A DNA stretch of 37,443 bases from Candidatus Saccharimonadales bacterium (GCA_052031955.1 JBPEXE010000136.1:1-37443), one strand, 5' to 3'. Shown: positions 1 to 29,070, numbered from the stretch's first letter. The notes: a model not told the origin generated them from the sequence alone. Numbers and translations are program-made.

Positions 1-100
1 ACTTCTTTCGCTCAACGTATTTGTGAATATAAAAGCTGTCGAGATAAAACATACGCATATTGTACGACAGCCGTCGTGTGCAAACCATGCAAAAAAGGGG

Positions 101-106
101 TACAAT
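101..106 (+). promoter_or_regulatory. candidate -10 box (TACAAT) for the 120..1601 gene
   Basis: TACAAT lies 13 nt upstream of the ATG at 120. There is no convincing -35 (GTGCAA at 78-83). A short or absent leader is implied. Confidence 0.3.
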
Positions 107-119
107 ATAGGGGCATCCA

Positions 120-1601
120 ATGCACACAAAAACCAAAACAAAACTACGTATCGGGCTTCTTCTTGGCATACTCATAATGCCGTTAGTTTGGGTTGGTCGA
201 ACACACGCTGCAGCCCTTACTTCAAACATCAGCCAGTTTACCTTGTATGAAGATCCTGCCTCCGGCAAAAATGAAACACGCTTCTTCTTATCGCTCATCC
301 CCGAGCCAATTGCATCTGTTACGACTACCTTCTCCACAAATGGACAGTGCAGTATCGGCCATAATTACGAAAATTACGCCACCGGTGGTGCTATTGTCAC
401 ACCAAACGACAAGCTTGGCATAGGCGTGAGGGCAATCGACGACACCGATGGCGAAGGCACGCACACCTGCGAGGTGCGTTTTAGCGCGGTCAGCAATGGC
501 GACTCTGCGTATGCCACACCGGTAGTGCTCGACTACTCATTTAAAATTATCGACAACGACATCCAGCTCAAGCATGAATTTTCGACCTCCACACTAACGT
601 TGTCGCGCCTTAAGGAAGCCACCTCAATCATCGAACAGTATGAGCTCGACATTTCACATGCGCCGCAAGAGGATATTTATATAACTGCCAGCGTGGGGAA
701 TCAGTGCGACCTGCTAATCGGAACACCACAAAGGCGAAGCAAGACCGCTGAGGGAGTCTTTCGGGCCGGAGAGGAGGATACCATTAAGTTTTCGTTGATA
801 GCTGTTGATGACTCCGTATACGAAGGAATCCATCAATGCTCTGTGCAACACTCTGCATCGACTCTAGACGTTGATTTTAAAGGAGTTGCAGTGCCAACCT
901 ATTCAACGTCTATTCTTGATAATGAGACCAACCCTGACATACCGGACCAACGCGAGTATGAGGGCGGTCTGATTTATTACAAAGACGCGAACTATGACGG
1001 AGTCGATGACGATAAACAACCACAAGTTGTAAGTTTTATGAATCAGGTCCGCAAGAAACGACAGGGGCTGGTACTGCTCGATAGGCGAGGCGAGCTATCT
1101 GAGAGCTGTCGGTTTGTGAGTGCGGTGACGTCGACCGAGGCAAACGAAGAGAGCTCGTCGCTCCAATCAACGCATGGCGTGATTAATGTTAGCGTGGCTT
1201 GCGAGGGCGAGCGGGACTACACGCTGATGTGGCTACTTGATGCATACGATGAATATGCCAAAGATTGGAATATCTATGATGTTGCCGGTGACTCGACGCT
1301 GAACCGAATCCCGCATTCAGCCGGGATCTACAACCTGGGTGAGCAGTTTACTACGATGGTTACAATCGATTTATCGGCTGGCGGCGAGATTGCCCTTTTG
1401 CAAGCTCAGCCGGCGGTTGGCGATATTGAGCTCACCGAGCAGCAGGCGCTTGTGGCTGATGTAAATAACTCTCGTCTTAACCCAATTGCAACACTTTCTG
1501 CGGCATCTGCGCTGATGACTGTGCTATGGCTTGTTTATAGGCGTTATTTTGGCGGTGTGCAGACGGTGAAATCACGCTATCCGCGCGTCGACCACTTCTA
1601 A
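120..1601 (+). CDS. secreted, C-terminally membrane-anchored surface protein with Calx-beta-like repeats
   Basis: N-terminal signal peptide (LRIGLLLGILIMPLVWVGRTHAAA). C-terminal hydrophobic anchor (LSAASALMTVLWLVYRRYF). Three internal segments each carry a Cys pair. Two of them show Calx-beta-like strings (DDTDGEGTHTCEVRF...FKIIDND; DDSVYEGIHQCSV...TSILDNE). Family assignment is by motif only. Confidence 0.6.
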   Translation: MHTKTKTKLRIGLLLGILIMPLVWVGRTHAAALTSNISQFTLYEDPASGKNETRFFLSLIPEPIASVTTTFSTNGQCSIGHNYENYATGGAIVTPNDKLGIGVRAIDDTDGEGTHTCEVRFSAVSNGDSAYATPVVLDYSFKIIDNDIQLKHEFSTSTLTLSRLKEATSIIEQYELDISHAPQEDIYITASVGNQCDLLIGTPQRRSKTAEGVFRAGEEDTIKFSLIAVDDSVYEGIHQCSVQHSASTLDVDFKGVAVPTYSTSILDNETNPDIPDQREYEGGLIYYKDANYDGVDDDKQPQVVSFMNQVRKKRQGLVLLDRRGELSESCRFVSAVTSTEANEESSSLQSTHGVINVSVACEGERDYTLMWLLDAYDEYAKDWNIYDVAGDSTLNRIPHSAGIYNLGEQFTTMVTIDLSAGGEIALLQAQPAVGDIELTEQQALVADVNNSRLNPIATLSAASALMTVLWLVYRRYFGGVQTVKSRYPRVDHF

Positions 1602-2152
1602 ATTGGTTTATCTTTGAGGCCAAGCTTCCAGCCAATCACGGTGGCTATAGGGTGTAAGGAAATGCCAACTAGTGCGGCAGCGGCGTATTGTGATATCGAC
1701 AAGGCGCCAACCGGAATACTAAAAATCAAGGCGCCGATGACATAATCAATTTGGTCAAATGGCACCCATGCTTCACCGGGCTTGATGTTGATTTGTCGCT
1801 TCAAGAAACTCTCAAAGGCATCGCCAACCAGGGCGCCAAGCCCAATGAGTAGTGCTAGTTCAACATACTCACTGACGCCCATATCAAAGAATTCGAGTCT
1901 GTTTAGCACGTCAAACTGCTCACTTAAACCATATTGCACGAGGGCGATTGATACGGCGAAAATGAGGCCGGCTACGATGCCACGATAGGTCTTGTTGCGA
2001 CCAAAAATCGGGTGACCTCGGAATGTTTTGCCACCATCAAGTGGAATATCTAATGTGTCGAGAAAGGGAATCTTTTTTGCCCAAATCGGCGCCATGTTGC
2101 TGAACATCGCCGGCAACAGGAACCAAAATCCTTGAGCAATTAAGTAAAACAT
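1598..2152 (-). CDS. carS: CDP-archaeol synthase (CarS/DUF46)-family membrane cytidylyltransferase
   Basis: 184-aa multi-pass hydrophobic protein. LLPAMFSNMAP...LDGGKTFRGHPIFGRNKTYRG and GDAFESFLKRQ...PFDQIDY match the conserved CarS blocks as I recall them. It starts 12 nt downstream of the PHP gene and shares a 4-nt stop-stop overlap with 120..1601. Confidence 0.7.
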   Translation of the reverse strand: MFYLIAQGFWFLLPAMFSNMAPIWAKKIPFLDTLDIPLDGGKTFRGHPIFGRNKTYRGIVAGLIFAVSIALVQYGLSEQFDVLNRLEFFDMGVSEYVELALLIGLGALVGDAFESFLKRQINIKPGEAWVPFDQIDYVIGALIFSIPVGALSISQYAAAALVGISLHPIATVIGWKLGLKDKPI

Positions 2153-2164
2153 AGAATCAGAATA

Positions 2165-2824
2165 TCACACCCGTCGCCAGAGCTTGGCGACACGATTATA
2201 CTTCGGCGAGAAATAGGTTCTCAGTGGAGGCCGGTCGTAGACCGTTCTTGCTCCCCGTTGGAATGCCTCACGAAGCTCAGCAGCATTTTTGGGGATAGAC
2301 TCCAGCAGAGTAAATGTCCAGCCGACACCCCCGGGCGAGTGTGCATCCGAACTGGCAACAATCGGAATGGTATGCTGCTTCGCCCACAAACGTAGTTCGG
2401 GGTTTGGCTTGTGGAGTTGGCGACCGTTGTATACCTCCAAAGCGTCGATGTCATGAACGATTGTTTCCATGTCTTCGCGACTCATGCCGCTTCTGTGCGG
2501 GTCTTCGGGGTGGGGGATAATGATAAATCCATGTTGCTTCTTTATGGCGGCGATGGTGTCTTCGGCCGATTGCCCATCCTCAACCTTGGCCTTTAGAAAC
2601 AGGCCGATAATTTCGCCCTCAGTACTTTTTATCTCTTGACCAACAATGATTGCCTCGGCAATCGTGGCGTCGCGTTTGGCGGTTTTGGCGTATTCAATTG
2701 TTTTGTGGTCGGTGATGGCGACGGCGTCGAGTGTGCCATGCTCAAGCATGCGCGTGTAGTGTGTCAGCGATATACCACCGTCGTGAGACGCTCGAGAGTG
2801 AGTGTGCAAATCAATCTTTATCAT
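2165..2824 (-). CDS. PHP-domain metal-dependent phosphoesterase
   Basis: Track ORF 2165..2929 trimmed to Met36 (ATG 2822-2824), giving a 14-nt overlap with the upstream gene. IDLHTHSRASHDG, AITDH, IIIPHP and SSDAHS give the His/Asp ligand pattern of PHP phosphatases. Confidence 0.75.
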   Translation of the reverse strand: MIKIDLHTHSRASHDGGISLTHYTRMLEHGTLDAVAITDHKTIEYAKTAKRDATIAEAIIVGQEIKSTEGEIIGLFLKAKVEDGQSAEDTIAAIKKQHGFIIIPHPEDPHRSGMSREDMETIVHDIDALEVYNGRQLHKPNPELRLWAKQHTIPIVASSDAHSPGGVGWTFTLLESIPKNAAELREAFQRGARTVYDRPPLRTYFSPKYNRVAKLWRRV

Positions 2825-3458
2825 TGAGTCGAGCGAGGATACTTGAAAAACGGATAAGATAGGTTGCCATCGAACCAATCGCAACCACCAGAACTCCCCA
2901 GAGGAGTTGGCCGGTAAAGAACGCAACAATCAAAACGAACATGCGAACCTCGTATCCAAAAATGCCATCTTCAAATTCACGGTTAATGTCGGCCTTTTTG
3001 CGTTTGGCATTTGCTTCTGCCAGTGCGACTTCTCCCTTTGCTTTGACATAGCTCACGCTTATCGAGAGGCCGAGTGCCAACGTCGCATACAGTGCACCAA
3101 GTGGGTCACCGTGGTTGGCAAACCAATAGGCGATACCGGCGTAGAGGAGGGACTCCTTTATCCTGTCGGTAGTGCTATCGAGTAACATACCTTTGAATCC
3201 GGTCGTCCCCTGATGCCGTGCCACGGCACCATCGAGCGCATCTAGCAAACCAAAGCCAATCAAAAGTATGCCGGCTTCGATGAGCATGTCTTCGGTCAGG
3301 GCGAACAAGATGACGACATGTCCAAGCAGCGACAGCATTGAAATGTGCCAGGCTTCGATGAAGCCATTGCTCACAAAGTCGAGGAGTTTCGCTACCTCGT
3401 CCATCATGCCGCGAATAGTTGACTTTATTTTGTCTAAGATGTCTTTCACTGATACCAT
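2811..3458 (-). CDS. CDP-alcohol phosphatidyltransferase family protein
   Basis: DALDGAVARHQGTTGFKGMLLDSTTD fits the signature D-x2-D-G-x2-A-R-x8-G-x3-D-x3-D. Amphipathic N-terminus followed by several hydrophobic spans. First gene of a three-gene lipid module. Confidence 0.85.
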   Translation of the reverse strand: MVSVKDILDKIKSTIRGMMDEVAKLLDFVSNGFIEAWHISMLSLLGHVVILFALTEDMLIEAGILLIGFGLLDALDGAVARHQGTTGFKGMLLDSTTDRIKESLLYAGIAYWFANHGDPLGALYATLALGLSISVSYVKAKGEVALAEANAKRKKADINREFEDGIFGYEVRMFVLIVAFFTGQLLWGVLVVAIGSMATYLIRFSSILARLNDKD

Positions 3459-3481
3459 TGTAACAGATAAGAGAACAATAA

Positions 3482-3820
3482 ATGAGCAACACGATTTCGT
3501 GGGAAGATTTTGAAAAAGTAGATATCCGTGTGGGTAAGATTATTGCCGTTGAAGATTTTCCTGAAGCTCACAAGCCGGCCTATAAATTACAGATTGATTT
3601 TGGTGATGGTATTGGCGTTAAGCGCTCATCGGCGCGAATCACCAGCATCCCAAAAGATGAGCTGATGGGGCAACTCGTCGCAGCTGTAGTCAACTTTCCT
3701 CCAAAACAGGTCGGGCCCTTTATGTCCGAGGTGCTAACGGTCGGTTTTGGCGATGAGGCCGAAAACTGGATTGTTGTATCGCCAATTCGTGACGTACCAC
3801 TTGGTGGGAAGCTGCAATGA
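3482..3820 (+). CDS. csaA: tRNA-binding domain protein (CsaA/EMAP-type)
   Basis: 112 aa. FEKVDIRVGKIIAVEDFPEAHKPAYKLQIDFG...VNFPPKQVGPFMSEVL closely parallels Bacillus CsaA. Confidence 0.85.
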   Translation: MSNTISWEDFEKVDIRVGKIIAVEDFPEAHKPAYKLQIDFGDGIGVKRSSARITSIPKDELMGQLVAAVVNFPPKQVGPFMSEVLTVGFGDEAENWIVVSPIRDVPLGGKLQ

Positions 3821-4470
3821 GCCGAAAGACCCTCATAATTCTTGATTTTGATGGCACGATTGCCGACACTGCTGCCATTGTTATGGAAGTTGGCAATACC
3901 GTTCTCGAGCAATATGGCATTCCAAAGCTTGATGAAGATAGATTTGAAGAGATGCGCGGCAAGACGGCGCCGGAACTCCTCAAGGAGTTTCATATTCCAT
4001 TCTATAAAATTCCAAGCATAGTGGCATCGGTTCGACATAACCTAAAGAGCCACATGGATGACTTGGAGCCGATCGAGGGTATGCTCGAACTTATTAAAGA
4101 CTACTCGGCGCGCGAGAACGTTGAGCTTGCTGTGTTATCGTCAAATAGCCTCGAGAACGTTTCATTCTTTCTAAACAAGTATGAAGTGCGGGATTGCTTT
4201 GCCTTTTTGTACGGCGATGTCGGTGTCTTTAGCAAGTACACAAAGATTCGGCGCATAAGCCGTAGTGAAGGCAAAGGCGCGCGTGTTATCAGCATCGGCG
4301 ATGAGGTGCGCGATGTCGAGGCTGGCAAGATTGCACGCGTTGATTCTATTGCGGTAACGTGGGGCATGAACTCTGCCGAACGGCTGAAGGCGGCCGGCGC
4401 GAGCCACGTCGTCAATACGGTGAAAGACTTAGCCAAAACGCTTGATGAACTGATACAGACCAAGGAATAG
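3817..4470 (+). CDS. HAD-superfamily hydrolase (phosphoglycolate phosphatase-like)
   Basis: LIILDFDGTIADT (DxDxT motif I) and a later GDEVRD motif. ATGA start/stop overlap with csaA. Confidence 0.75.
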   Translation: MSRKTLIILDFDGTIADTAAIVMEVGNTVLEQYGIPKLDEDRFEEMRGKTAPELLKEFHIPFYKIPSIVASVRHNLKSHMDDLEPIEGMLELIKDYSARENVELAVLSSNSLENVSFFLNKYEVRDCFAFLYGDVGVFSKYTKIRRISRSEGKGARVISIGDEVRDVEAGKIARVDSIAVTWGMNSAERLKAAGASHVVNTVKDLAKTLDELIQTKE

Positions 4471-4486
4471 GTGTTAAAATAGACAC

Positions 4487-5566
4487 ATGATTGAAGCAGG
4501 GTTGGTTGCGGTAATTATTATCCAGATTGTTATGATCTTTTTTTTGACGAGCTCGCGCGGCAAGAAGAACGACTCGGAGTCAGCGGCTCTGCTGAAAGCA
4601 GACATGACTAAGCTGTCGGACGACATGAACAAGCTGCGAGAGGGCTTGGGAGACAAACTGAGTGATGGGCTGTATAAAAATCAGGAAATGATGGTCAAAA
4701 GTCTGCAAAAGCAGTTTGCCCAAAGCTCCAAGCTAATCTCTGAAGTGACGACCAACTTGACCGAGATTAAGGAGTCTAACAAGCAAGTTGTTTCGGTGAC
4801 CGACGAGCTGAAGACATTGCAGAATATTTTGCAGAATCCAAAACAGCGCGGTGTGCTCGGCGAGTATTATCTACAGACCGTACTTGAAAACGTCCTGCCC
4901 GCCGATCGATTTGCCATGCAGTACAAATTTAAGGACGGCAACATTGTTGATGCCGTTATCTTCTTGGACAAAAATAAAATTCTGCCGGTTGACTCTAAGT
5001 TTAGTCTTGAGAACTACAACCGCTTTGTTGAGTCCAAGAGCAAAGTAGAGCGCGAGCGACTGGCGAAGCTCTTCAAAGCAGACTTAAAGGCTCGTATCGA
5101 TGAAACTGCGAAATACGTACGCCCGCAAGAAAACACGCTCGACCATGCTTTTATGTTTATACCCTCAGAGGCAATTTATTATGACTTGCTATCTGGTGAC
5201 AATAGTATTGGCGTCGGTGTGTCGTCACGCGATTTGCTTGAGTACGCCTTCCGTGAAAAGAAGGTTATTATTGTCAGCCCGACGACGTTCATGGCCTATC
5301 TCCAGACAGTTATACAGGGCTTACGCAGCCTGCAGATTGAAGAGAAGGCAAAAGATATTCAGAAACGAGTTGGCGAGCTTGGGCGCCACATCACGGTGTA
5401 TGAGGATTACATGCAAAAGCTTGGCAAATCGCTTGGCACGACCGTCAATCACTACAACAATGCTCACAAAGAACTTGGCAAGATTGATAAAGACGTTGTG
5501 CGTATCGCTGATGCATCACCCGGCGTCGAACCGCTTCTCGTGGATAGGCCTAGCGAGCAAGAATAA
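4487..5566 (+). CDS. rmuC: DNA recombination protein RmuC
   Basis: N-terminal TM helix, then a coiled-coil-like region, then NPKQRGVLGEYYLQTVLENVLP and FIPSEAIYYDLL, as in RmuC family proteins. Confidence 0.85.
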   Translation: MIEAGLVAVIIIQIVMIFFLTSSRGKKNDSESAALLKADMTKLSDDMNKLREGLGDKLSDGLYKNQEMMVKSLQKQFAQSSKLISEVTTNLTEIKESNKQVVSVTDELKTLQNILQNPKQRGVLGEYYLQTVLENVLPADRFAMQYKFKDGNIVDAVIFLDKNKILPVDSKFSLENYNRFVESKSKVERERLAKLFKADLKARIDETAKYVRPQENTLDHAFMFIPSEAIYYDLLSGDNSIGVGVSSRDLLEYAFREKKVIIVSPTTFMAYLQTVIQGLRSLQIEEKAKDIQKRVGELGRHITVYEDYMQKLGKSLGTTVNHYNNAHKELGKIDKDVVRIADASPGVEPLLVDRPSEQE

Positions 5567-27355: not shown

Positions 27356-28315
27356 ATGGCCGAGGATGTCAAACAAATCGAAGTAGCAATGATAGGTGCA
27401 GGCCCAAGCGCATTGGCGGCAGCCGTATATACATCGCGCGAAAACATCCAGACTGTGTTATTCGAGAAGGGTGTCATAGGTGGCTTGGCAGCGATTACTG
27501 ACCAAGTTGATAATTACCCAGGATTTGATCAAGGCATCGAGGGCATGGAGCTGGCTATGAAACTGCAAAACCAAGCGGAGCGGTTTGGAGCCACAATCGA
27601 GCTCGCAGAAGTATCGAACATTGAATCCATGCCGAATGGTGATGTGAAGCTTGAAACCAGCTCTGGTACGTATGAGGCGAAAGCGGTTCTTATTGCTACT
27701 GGAAGCGACTATCGTAAAATTGGTGTTCCGGGCGAAGAACAGATGTATGGTCGAGGAGTCCATTACTGCGCTACGTGCGATGGTGCATTTTATAAAGATC
27801 GCAAGCTTGTGGTTGTGGGCGGTGGCAACTCGGCAGCTCAAGAATCATTGTTCCTGACGCGTTTCGCCAGCGAGATCACCGTGCTCGTCCGCTCTGACTG
27901 GCGGGCATCCGAAGTGCTTGTAGAAGAGGTTGAAGCCAACGACAAAATAAAGGTTATCAAGGGAGTCACAACCGACGAGATTGTTGGTGATGCTGATGGC
28001 AAGGTTGTTGGTGTAAGGGCCACCTACACTGAGAGCGGCGAGAAACTTGAACTTGATACCGATGGGGTATTTATCTTTGTTGGTCTCGATCCGAACACGG
28101 GCTTTCTGAAGCACACCGCTGTTGAGCTCGATGAGCATGAGTTTATCAAGACGAGCGCATCCCTTGAAACCAGTATGAAAGGTGTTTTTGCCAGTGGTGA
28201 CGTGCGAAGCGGTGCAACGATGCAGATTGCTTCAGCAGTCGGCGAAGGTGCGACAGCCGCACTCAAGATTCGTGAGTATCTTGAAGACCGCGAACGAGCC
28301 GAGCGATCTTCTTAA
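27356..28315 (+). CDS. trxB: thioredoxin-disulfide reductase
   Basis: GAGPSALAAAVY FAD motif, CATCDG redox centre, GGGNSAAQE NADPH motif. Confidence 0.9.
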   Translation: MAEDVKQIEVAMIGAGPSALAAAVYTSRENIQTVLFEKGVIGGLAAITDQVDNYPGFDQGIEGMELAMKLQNQAERFGATIELAEVSNIESMPNGDVKLETSSGTYEAKAVLIATGSDYRKIGVPGEEQMYGRGVHYCATCDGAFYKDRKLVVVGGGNSAAQESLFLTRFASEITVLVRSDWRASEVLVEEVEANDKIKVIKGVTTDEIVGDADGKVVGVRATYTESGEKLELDTDGVFIFVGLDPNTGFLKHTAVELDEHEFIKTSASLETSMKGVFASGDVRSGATMQIASAVGEGATAALKIREYLEDRERAERSS

Positions 28316-29070
28316 TTTTGTTCAGTTGGAAACTGGTCGGGGAGCGTGACGCTATCCGTCCAGAATGATTCAACGCCAAACAGTTGGAGAAATTTAACCG
28401 TCATTATGTTGTTGACGGTGTAGACACCACGGTGCTGAACGCCAAACAAGACCGCAATTGGCGAGAGAACAGGTGCAAGCCATTTATTGAACGTAATCCA
28501 GCGCGCGCCGAGGTTGTGATACGGTCGACCGAAACTTCGAGGCAGATTGCGCCAACTGTATAACATCGCAACACCCGCTTCGGGTACGCGTTGCTTAATT
28601 TCCATCAGTGCATCCCAGTCAAAACATGAGAATACGATTTTCTCCCACGACCATTCATCGTACTTGTCAATCATGTCACTTAAGACCTCAAGCACCGGCT
28701 CAACGGCTTCCTTTGTCTTTAACTCGAGGTTTAATGGGTGTCCTTCGGCGGCTCTCAGGCCTTCGGCCAACGTCGAGAGTTCAATTTCCTCCGAGCGAAT
28801 GATATCGATAGTAAGACCAAGCACAGGCTGTCCGAGGCGGTGTCGCTTTGATTTAGGAATGCTGTACAGCTCATACAGTCGATCAAGTGTTGGATCATGA
28901 ATGAGTATTGGTGTTTGCGTTGCACTGTCATCGCTACGTGACCGGCGAACGTCGACCTCGATGTACGCGAAGCGGCCGGACTTAGCGGCACGTTCAATCG
29001 CGCCAGCAGTGTTTTCGCGACGCCCAGTACTCCACGCACCTCGATGCGCTACAAAGATTGGCTTCTTCAT
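28312..29070 (-). CDS. glycerophosphodiester phosphodiesterase (GDPD) family protein
   Basis: IFVAHRGAWS..RENTAGAIERAAKSG..YIEVDVR is the GDPD N-terminal catalytic pattern (HRG / EN / E.D). Confidence 0.75.
   Translation of the reverse strand: MKKPIFVAHRGAWSTGRRENTAGAIERAAKSGRFAYIEVDVRRSRSDDSATQTPILIHDPTLDRLYELYSIPKSKRHRLGQPVLGLTIDIIRSEEIELSTLAEGLRAAEGHPLNLELKTKEAVEPVLEVLSDMIDKYDEWSWEKIVFSCFDWDALMEIKQRVPEAGVAMLYSWRNLPRSFGRPYHNLGARWITFNKWLAPVLSPIAVLFGVQHRGVYTVNNIMTVKFLQLFGVESFWTDSVTLPDQFPTEQN

Follow-up and report, generated by a model that had tools for sequence, protein, structure and literature searches.

Three adjacent minus-strand genes in a 37,443-nucleotide stretch of DNA from a Candidatus Saccharimonadales bacterium (GCA_052031955.1 JBPEXE010000136.1:1-37443; hereafter the window) encode a CDP-alcohol phosphatidyltransferase, a PHP-family metal-dependent phosphoesterase, and a CTP:lipid-phosphate cytidylyltransferase resembling CarS, the CDP-archaeol synthase of archaea. 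We lean, modestly, toward reading this trio as a translationally coupled operon that builds polar-lipid head groups, with an inositol-phosphate-like head group, on salvaged lipid. In the first step the CarS-like membrane enzyme would use CTP to activate salvaged phosphatidic acid to a CDP-lipid. The transferase would next move the lipid-phosphate moiety to a phosphorylated alcohol resembling inositol-1-phosphate, giving a phosphorylated head group and CMP; the PHP protein, held at the membrane by a basic C-terminal tail, would finally remove the head-group phosphate to leave a phosphatidylinositol-like lipid. A preliminary description of this DNA had envisioned such an activate, transfer, and dephosphorylate cassette for re-heading scavenged lipid. 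Its assignment of the cytidylyltransferase to the CarS family, the co-conservation of the genes, and the clade of the transferase stand; its suggestions that CarS takes the place of CdsA here, that the cassette is self-contained, and that an ether lipid might be the substrate do not.

The window corresponds to contig C42 in a genome of 885 kb (145 contigs, 92.7% complete), and the labels carried by close homologues and related loci are Saccharibacteria or Saccharimonadales. All three open reading frames (ORFs) were found at the coordinates first proposed, together with the 14-nt overlap and the 12-nt gap between them. The transferase (215 aa; PF01066), of a clade resembling archaetidylinositol phosphate (AIP) and phosphatidylinositol phosphate (PIP) synthases, runs from 3458 to 2811, the PHP protein (219 aa; PF02811, PF13263) from 2824 to 2165, and the CarS-like protein (184 aa; PF01864) from 2152 to 1598, each on the minus strand. 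Read from the sequence, the transferase gene closes with TGA (2813-2811) and the PHP gene opens with ATG (2824-2822), leaving an overlap at 2811..2824 that suggests translational coupling; 12 nt separate the PHP stop (2167-2165) from the ATG of the CarS-like gene at 2152. A mechanical ORF list begins the PHP gene at a TTG at 2929, and the ATG at 2824, from which the protein starts MIKIDLHTHS, is backed by alignment with 29-30 orthologues. The database gene call for the CarS-like protein is 169 aa long; the 184-aa form aligns with its orthologues from residue 1.

Profile, sequence, and modeled fold agree in assigning the predicted 184-aa protein to CarS and not to CdsA. It matches PF01864 over residues 2-182 of 184 (E 5.6e-30, 105.1 bits, cut-off 22), and phmmer relates it to the CarS of A. 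pernix (ApCarS, 5GUF; E 7.5e-11). The AlphaFold model (pLDDT 94.1) has 5GUF as its sole match in the PDB at E <= 0.001, with template modeling (TM) scores of 0.71/0.82 and a root-mean-square deviation of 2.1 Å over 166 columns. Residues G110, K118, R119, D133, and D136 are invariant across 33 bacterial and archaeal sequences, and D111, S115, F116, and Q134 are kept in at least 90% of them; they lie in the motifs G-D-x3-S-F-x-K-R and D-Q-x-D, which, from the structures of CdsA and CarS, we take to be catalytic and shared with CdsA. ApCarS thus has in common with the window protein a full-length match to the same Pfam family, a compact helical-bundle fold, and both motifs. Unlike ApCarS, the protein here belongs to a bacterium without detectable GGGP synthase or sign of ether-lipid synthesis, scores under the cut-off of the NCBIfam CarS equivalog NF003114 (125.6 bits vs 148), and lies on the opposite side of the CarS tree from the sampled archaea. 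CdsA is of the same superfamily, and the same chemistry is probable (CTP and lipid phosphate giving CDP-lipid and pyrophosphate). However, the CdsA profile PF01148 finds no full-length match, only model positions 168-231 of 264 (the catalytic core, 36 bits), and the fold matches include no CdsA structure; the CarS-like protein is a compact 184-aa helical bundle, whereas the PF01148 model alone has 264 positions. Elsewhere, a cluster of 385-aa proteins (P0251, 13 members) matches both PF01864 and PF01148 and may, to judge from these profiles, combine both cytidylyltransferase types in one fused protein.

One branch of the CarS tree (SH-aLRT 97) divides the bacterial from the archaeal sequences, which indicates a long separate evolution and not a recent acquisition. 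Sequences from bacteria of the candidate phyla radiation (CPR) are not nested within DPANN, and the tree, with many poorly resolved forks and no established root, gives no direction of transfer between CPR and DPANN. Three sequences from bins labelled Chloroflexia, Ktedonobacteraceae, and Gammaproteobacteria (L058, L078, P0057) group with those of Levybacteria, a placement explained either by export of the gene from CPR bacteria or by mis-binning.

Such an archaeal family invites the idea that the operon makes an archaeal-type isoprenoid ether lipid, by way of a CDP-archaeol-like and then an archaetidylinositol-phosphate-like intermediate, on backbones that are scavenged or come from unrecognised enzymes. 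Both membrane enzymes score best on archaeal models (NF003114 and the AIP synthase model NF040950), the CarS-like model finds no structural match but ApCarS, and the PHP-CarS pair is found in DPANN archaea as well; yet the same tree splits bacterial from archaeal CarS at a single well-supported branch, cultivated Saccharibacteria grow on Actinobacteria, and the genome encodes a PlsC-type acyltransferase with H-x4-D and FPEGTR motifs (contig C62). A high fatty acid content has, moreover, been reported for CPR membranes (PMC10939385). In this genome and 20 relatives, nothing exceeded the cut-off for GGGP synthase (PcrB family), so the setting of an archaeol pathway, in which CarS co-occurs with GGGP and DGGGP synthases, was not found in these 21 genomes of the order. 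The ether-lipid option is thereby left without support and is, in our estimation, very improbable. For the head-group operon proposed here, we infer that the substrate of the CarS-like enzyme is phosphatidic acid from the host, probably the diacyl form.

For the transferase, the match to PF01066 (E 3.2e-9, 37.8 bits, cut-off 22) is accompanied by a complete signature, D73-x2-D76-G77-x2-A80-R81-x8-G90-x3-D94-x3-D98, whose positions are invariant in 29 orthologues save for R81, which is nearly so. The top NCBIfam models are AIP synthase (NF040950, 80.5 bits, cut-off 180) and PIP synthase (NF045883, 63.5 bits, cut-off 170); the model for Bacteroides BT_1523 is matched weakly (45.4 bits), and no PgsA model appears at E 0.01. 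Searched with the sequence and with the family profile, the PDB likewise returns PIP synthases first (6H53, 6WM5, 5D92; those of M. tuberculosis, M. kansasii, and Renibacterium), then AF2299 and DIPP synthase, and no PgsA structure at E 0.01. Models and structures together bear out the earlier view that the clade is one whose products carry a phosphorylated head group. Residues S136, Y137, K139, R99, and R203 align with S132, Y133, K135, R94, and R195 of the M. tuberculosis PIP synthase (MtPIPS) and are conserved in the family; R172 is invariant and is probably the counterpart of MtPIPS R155, the stretch around which HMMER left unaligned. In MtPIPS, S132, K135, and R195 have been shown to bind inositol phosphate (PMC4634129), and R155, as well as R94 and Y133 (PMC6506517), also counts among the binding residues. 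Sequence comparison thus shows both the predicted clade and the conserved phosphate- and inositol-binding residues; that inositol-1-phosphate is the actual acceptor we consider plausible, somewhat short of probable.

The same pathway could also serve another head group. The acceptor would then be glycerol-1-phosphate, glycerol-3-phosphate, or a sugar phosphate, and removal of its phosphate by the PHP protein would yield a phosphatidylglycerol-like or novel lipid. Because the transferase scores far under the AIP and PIP synthase equivalog cut-offs, its acceptor may indeed differ. Inositol-phosphate synthase (MIPS) was not detected in this genome by PF01658 or in 41 genomes of the order by PF07994, so any inositol-1-phosphate would need to be host-derived. 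The known hosts of Saccharibacteria are Actinobacteria, which make inositol-1-phosphate; this speaks for inositol, as do the conserved counterparts of MtPIPS S132, Y133, K135, and R195 and a family profile that does best on PIP synthases, AF2299, and DIPP synthase. Woesearchaeota have the PHP-CarS pair beside a PgsA-like transferase (182-184 bits), so the PHP protein is not bound to inositol. Here, however, two PgsA-like paralogues elsewhere in the genome (contigs C90 and C89) would already supply phosphatidylglycerol phosphate (PGP), and we regard a different head group as unlikely.

An inositol-phosphate-like head group would place the operon close to the inositol-lipid pathway of actinobacteria and archaea, where CdsA or CarS activates the lipid, a PIP synthase (6H53, PgsA1; 5D92) or AIP synthase transfers it to a phospho-alcohol, and a phosphatase completes the head group. 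The window transferase is nearest to those synthases and keeps the counterparts of S132, Y133, K135, R94, and R195. Unlike that pathway, the present one has three genes joined in a single operon, a transferase under the family cut-offs, no detected MIPS, and, as its phosphatase candidate, a member of the PHP family, to which neither PMC9385802 nor PMC6506517 assigns this step.

The gene order is widely kept. A pattern scan of species-representative genomes gave 560 CarS-like loci, and the locus counts used here refer to the best 80 of those 560. Transferase, PHP, and CarS follow one another on one strand in 42 of the 80, mostly with overlaps of 1-14 nt and otherwise abutting; in five further loci, from Levybacteria and Roizmanbacteria, the three families are all present but differently arranged. 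CarS is accompanied by a transferase only in 12/80 and stands alone in 20/80, some of these on short contigs. Overall, a CDP-alcohol transferase lies within 3.5 kb of CarS in 68/80. Of the first 21 of 41 family-level representatives of the order, about 16 carry the transferase and CarS on the same strand, 650-1,100 bp apart, with room for a PHP gene whose presence is read from the spacing and was not itself searched for; in one more the two genes abut. The trio is therefore strongly co-conserved, as the reading in the preliminary description requires.

Variants of the locus are informative. In Levybacteria and Roizmanbacteria an AIP synthase-like transferase is divergent from PHP, which is followed by a lipid kinase of DAGK_cat/YegS type and then by CarS; the partner transferase in Levybacteria reaches 151-153 bits on the AIP synthase model. 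Some Saccharibacteria have a lipid kinase divergent from CarS and a different transferase convergent with it, with no PHP gene. In all, 14 loci other than the present one show DAGK_cat linked to CarS. These arrangements fit a route from diacylglycerol through phosphatidic acid to CDP-lipid. For the genome studied here, a diacylglycerol kinase was considered as the feeder step and set aside, DAGK_cat not having been detected in it.

Outside bacteria, the closest arrangement is that of Woesearchaeota (DPANN; loci L085-L088), in which PHP and CarS genes of the same families lie on one strand, 2-10 bp apart, beside CDP-alcohol transferases; the PHP protein there is 29% identical to that of the window. 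These loci differ in that the transferase is divergent, a fused two-domain protein with the PgsA-like domain mentioned above, and in having genes for a serine transferase and a phosphatidylserine decarboxylase nearby, with a PAP2 phosphatase in L088. The product of the fused PgsA-like transferase is likewise phosphorylated. In one DPANN archaeon, a PlsC-type acyltransferase gene (L029:4330-4887, minus strand; PF01553, 72.6 bits) sits between PHP and CarS, a bacterial-type ester-lipid enzyme within an archaeal head-group locus.

The PHP protein itself passes the thresholds of two Pfam families (PF02811, 27.4 bits, cut-off 26.4; PF13263, 34 bits, cut-off 21.3). Its metal ligands H7, H9, D39, H40, E64, H105, and H162 are invariant in 30 orthologues, and D160 nearly so. 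The AlphaFold model (pLDDT 96.9) matches the PHP structures 3E38, 2ANU, and 7UG9 at probability 1.0; the top fold matches are the uncharacterised phosphoesterases 3E38 and TM0559/2ANU, followed by RNase AM and a nucleoside bisphosphate phosphatase. Scores against the characterised NCBIfam subfamilies (histidinol phosphatase, nucleoside bisphosphate phosphatase, RNase AM) are all far under their cut-offs, for example 33 vs 400 for 3',5'-nucleoside bisphosphate phosphatase and 31 vs 375 for RNase RNM. The modeled fold is accordingly that of a metal phosphoesterase and nothing more specific. In every orthologue the last 20 residues are strongly basic (mean net charge +5.8), while the window protein as a whole has a net charge of 0; such a tail fits docking on an anionic membrane. 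An amphipathic membrane helix at the C-terminus was also considered and discarded: the hydrophobic moment is unexceptional, and only the positive charge stands out.

What gives the PHP protein a candidate function is its company. It is present in 45 of 50 loci with an AIP or PIP synthase-like transferase and in 3 of 30 without one. This association with the type of transferase favours a phosphatase acting on the transferase product over a helper of CarS. No match to PgpA (PF04608) was obtained in this genome or 20 relatives, so any head-group phosphatase here belongs to a family other than PgpA. Outside Bacteroides the PIP phosphatase step lacks an assigned enzyme (PMC9385802, PMC6506517, PMC9246714); the exception is the PgpA-like PIP phosphatase BT_1525 (PMC9246714). 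The B. thetaiotaomicron cluster BT_1522-BT_1526, to which that enzyme belongs, resembles the window trio in coupling a PIP synthase (BT_1523) with a dedicated PIP phosphatase (PMC9246714). It differs in that its phosphatase is of the PgpA type, undetected in 21 Saccharimonadales genomes, and in carrying MIPS (BT_1526) and no cytidylyltransferase, whereas the trio has the CarS-like gene and MIPS is undetected. From gene linkage, and with the comparative data in its favour, we place the proposal that the PHP protein is the head-group phosphatase at an even balance.

The PHP protein may alternatively work with CarS and not on the transferase product, either as a phosphodiesterase that strips the head groups of scavenged phospholipids and so provides the lipid phosphate for activation by CarS, or as a pyrophosphatase or nucleotidase that pulls the CTP reaction forward. 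PHP-CarS adjacency is common to CPR bacteria and DPANN archaea whichever transferase is near, and the archaeal pair keeps room open for a helper role; in bacterial loci, by contrast, PHP follows the transferase type and not CarS, as the counts above show, and variants with CarS, a lipid kinase, and another transferase do without it. Relatives of the PHP protein include diesterases, nucleases (RNase AM), and a nucleoside bisphosphate phosphatase, and no diacylglycerol kinase is detectable here to feed CarS; against this, all transferases found adjoining PHP make phosphorylated head groups. A CarS-helper role therefore strikes us as improbable, and the product-phosphatase role is retained for the proposed operon.

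The genome around the operon holds further lipid genes. A CdsA-like gene lies on a 3.2-kb contig (C32:215-928, minus strand; PF01148, 103 bits). The contig is somewhat atypical, with a GC content of 51.9% vs 49.6% and a tetranucleotide correlation of 0.67, the fourth lowest of 46 contigs of similar size, and contamination was considered. The top homologue of the protein in the whole database, at 44% identity, is encoded in the closest relative (L091:4008-4697), on an 83-kb contig syntenic with window positions 120-5566 (53-79% protein identity); the gene there lies 157 bp past the surface-protein gene that flanks CarS. Since this best homologue adjoins the syntenic trio, contamination was rejected and the CdsA-like gene is treated as native to the lineage. 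C32 may adjoin the left end of the window; comparison of its ends with those of the window contig revealed no shared overlap.

In this lineage, then, the CarS-like enzyme coexists with a CdsA-like one and does not replace it, and the earlier phrase "CarS instead of CdsA" fails for this genome. Across most of the order the replacement holds: among 41 family-level genomes, a CarS-like gene occurs in 30-31 and a canonical CdsA in 3, and in most other families the CarS-like protein is the only member of the cytidylyltransferase superfamily. With the CdsA-like gene, the two PgsA-like transferases, and the PlsC-like acyltransferase, the genome offers more than the trio, which makes "self-contained" an overstatement; the operon is one of several head-group routes here. 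A canonical cdsA/pgsA/pgp set is accordingly present in part, in the CdsA-like and PgsA-like genes, with PgpA undetected. One other genome of the order (G004; 700 kb, one contig, 99% complete) has no CarS-like gene, CdsA, or CDP-alcohol transferase, and CDP-dependent head-group chemistry seems to be missing altogether from some Saccharimonadales.

Salvage is the other half of the proposal. Neither ketoacyl synthase nor PlsY was detected in this genome (PlsX, PlsB, and other Fab genes were not searched for), and de novo lipid synthesis looks absent, as expected from the outset. The undetected ketoacyl synthase, PlsY, DAGK_cat, PgpA, and GGGP synthase are together consistent with salvage. With inositol-phosphate synthase, PgpA, and GGGP synthase all undetected, the head group and the role of the PHP protein are matters that we infer.

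Several observations weigh against the operon as proposed. Work by Jain et al. from 2014 reportedly found archaeal CarS to act specifically on unsaturated archaetidic acid, with no activity on phosphatidic acid, so a change of specificity must be assumed; given the CdsA-like gene, the activation of phosphatidic acid need not fall to the CarS-like enzyme in this genome at all. The low equivalog scores of the transferase and the need for inositol-1-phosphate from the host, both described above, count on the same side. The PHP superfamily includes diesterases and nucleases, the nearest structures are uncharacterised, and the fold gives no pointer to a lipid substrate. Four loci have an AIP synthase-like transferase and CarS but no PHP, and a HAD-family phosphatase encoded next to the trio is an alternative candidate for the dephosphorylation step. 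Finally, the loci were counted in related genomes and do not represent phylogenetically independent events.

The flanking genes are as follows. The HAD-family phosphatase (217 aa; 3817..4470, plus strand; PF13419, E 7.7e-26) is divergent to the trio. Between them lies a gene for a CsaA-type tRNA-binding protein (3482-3820, plus strand; NF007495, 146 bits); its start is 23 nt away from that of the transferase, on the opposite strand, and it shares 4 nt with the HAD gene. The closest relative has both genes in syntenic positions. In 11/80 loci a HAD homologue is encoded no more than about 3 kb from CarS, and in one locus without PHP (L044) it is adjacent. We treat the HAD phosphatase as a neighbour with loose synteny that rivals the PHP protein as candidate head-group phosphatase; its membership in the module is only putative. 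Beyond the CarS-like gene, and adjoining it, a secreted, anchored surface protein of 493 aa without a Pfam match is encoded at 120-1601 on the plus strand; a protein 53% identical occupies the same position in the closest relative (L092:6552-7985). The GDPD gene that had been linked to the same scavenging theme is present at 28312-29070 on the minus strand (PF03009, E 2.6e-14), 25 kb from the trio. A promoter and terminator scan of positions 1-4600 gave nothing exceeding shuffled expectation, and tRNA and Rfam scans of the window were both empty.

The general idea of re-heading salvaged lipid in Saccharibacteria was already published in 2018: for a soil Saccharibacterium without fatty acid synthesis, Starr et al. 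(PMC6031116) proposed that acquired phosphatidic acid is converted to CDP-diacylglycerol and on to PGP, cardiolipin, and phosphatidylinositol. Public annotation, too, already calls the CarS-like proteins CDP-archaeol synthase. The literature searched contained no CarS-type enzyme in Saccharibacteria or other CPR bacteria and no PHP protein in the pathway, so that the CarS type and the PHP link appear to be undescribed there. A broader suggestion, which we offer tentatively and regard as possible and not yet probable, is that the PHP protein represents a new class of head-group phosphatase acting on PIP and AIP, and perhaps on PGP and archaetidylglycerol phosphate; that PHP-CarS forms a re-heading kit common to CPR bacteria and DPANN archaea, the two radiations of ultra-small prokaryotes that depend on hosts; and that CarS, of archaeal lineage, took over CDP-diacylglycerol synthesis from CdsA in most Saccharimonadales.

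Three small, expressible genes provide test material for the question of how CPR bacteria without lipid synthesis genes build their membranes. If the CarS-like enzyme takes diacyl phosphatidic acid, a family used as a marker of archaeal ether lipids would be a normal bacterial CDP-diacylglycerol synthase in a large lineage, and the reading of CarS matches in metagenomes would be affected. The coexistence of CarS-like and CdsA-like enzymes, encoded near each other in the closest relative, is a natural case for separating the roles of the two. Should the PHP protein prove to be a head-group phosphatase, its family would become a candidate for a step that lacks an assigned enzyme in Actinobacteria, including mycobacteria, and in Archaea. 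The locus is of interest mainly for a candidate missing lipid phosphatase that can be tested directly, and for the bacterial use of the CarS family.

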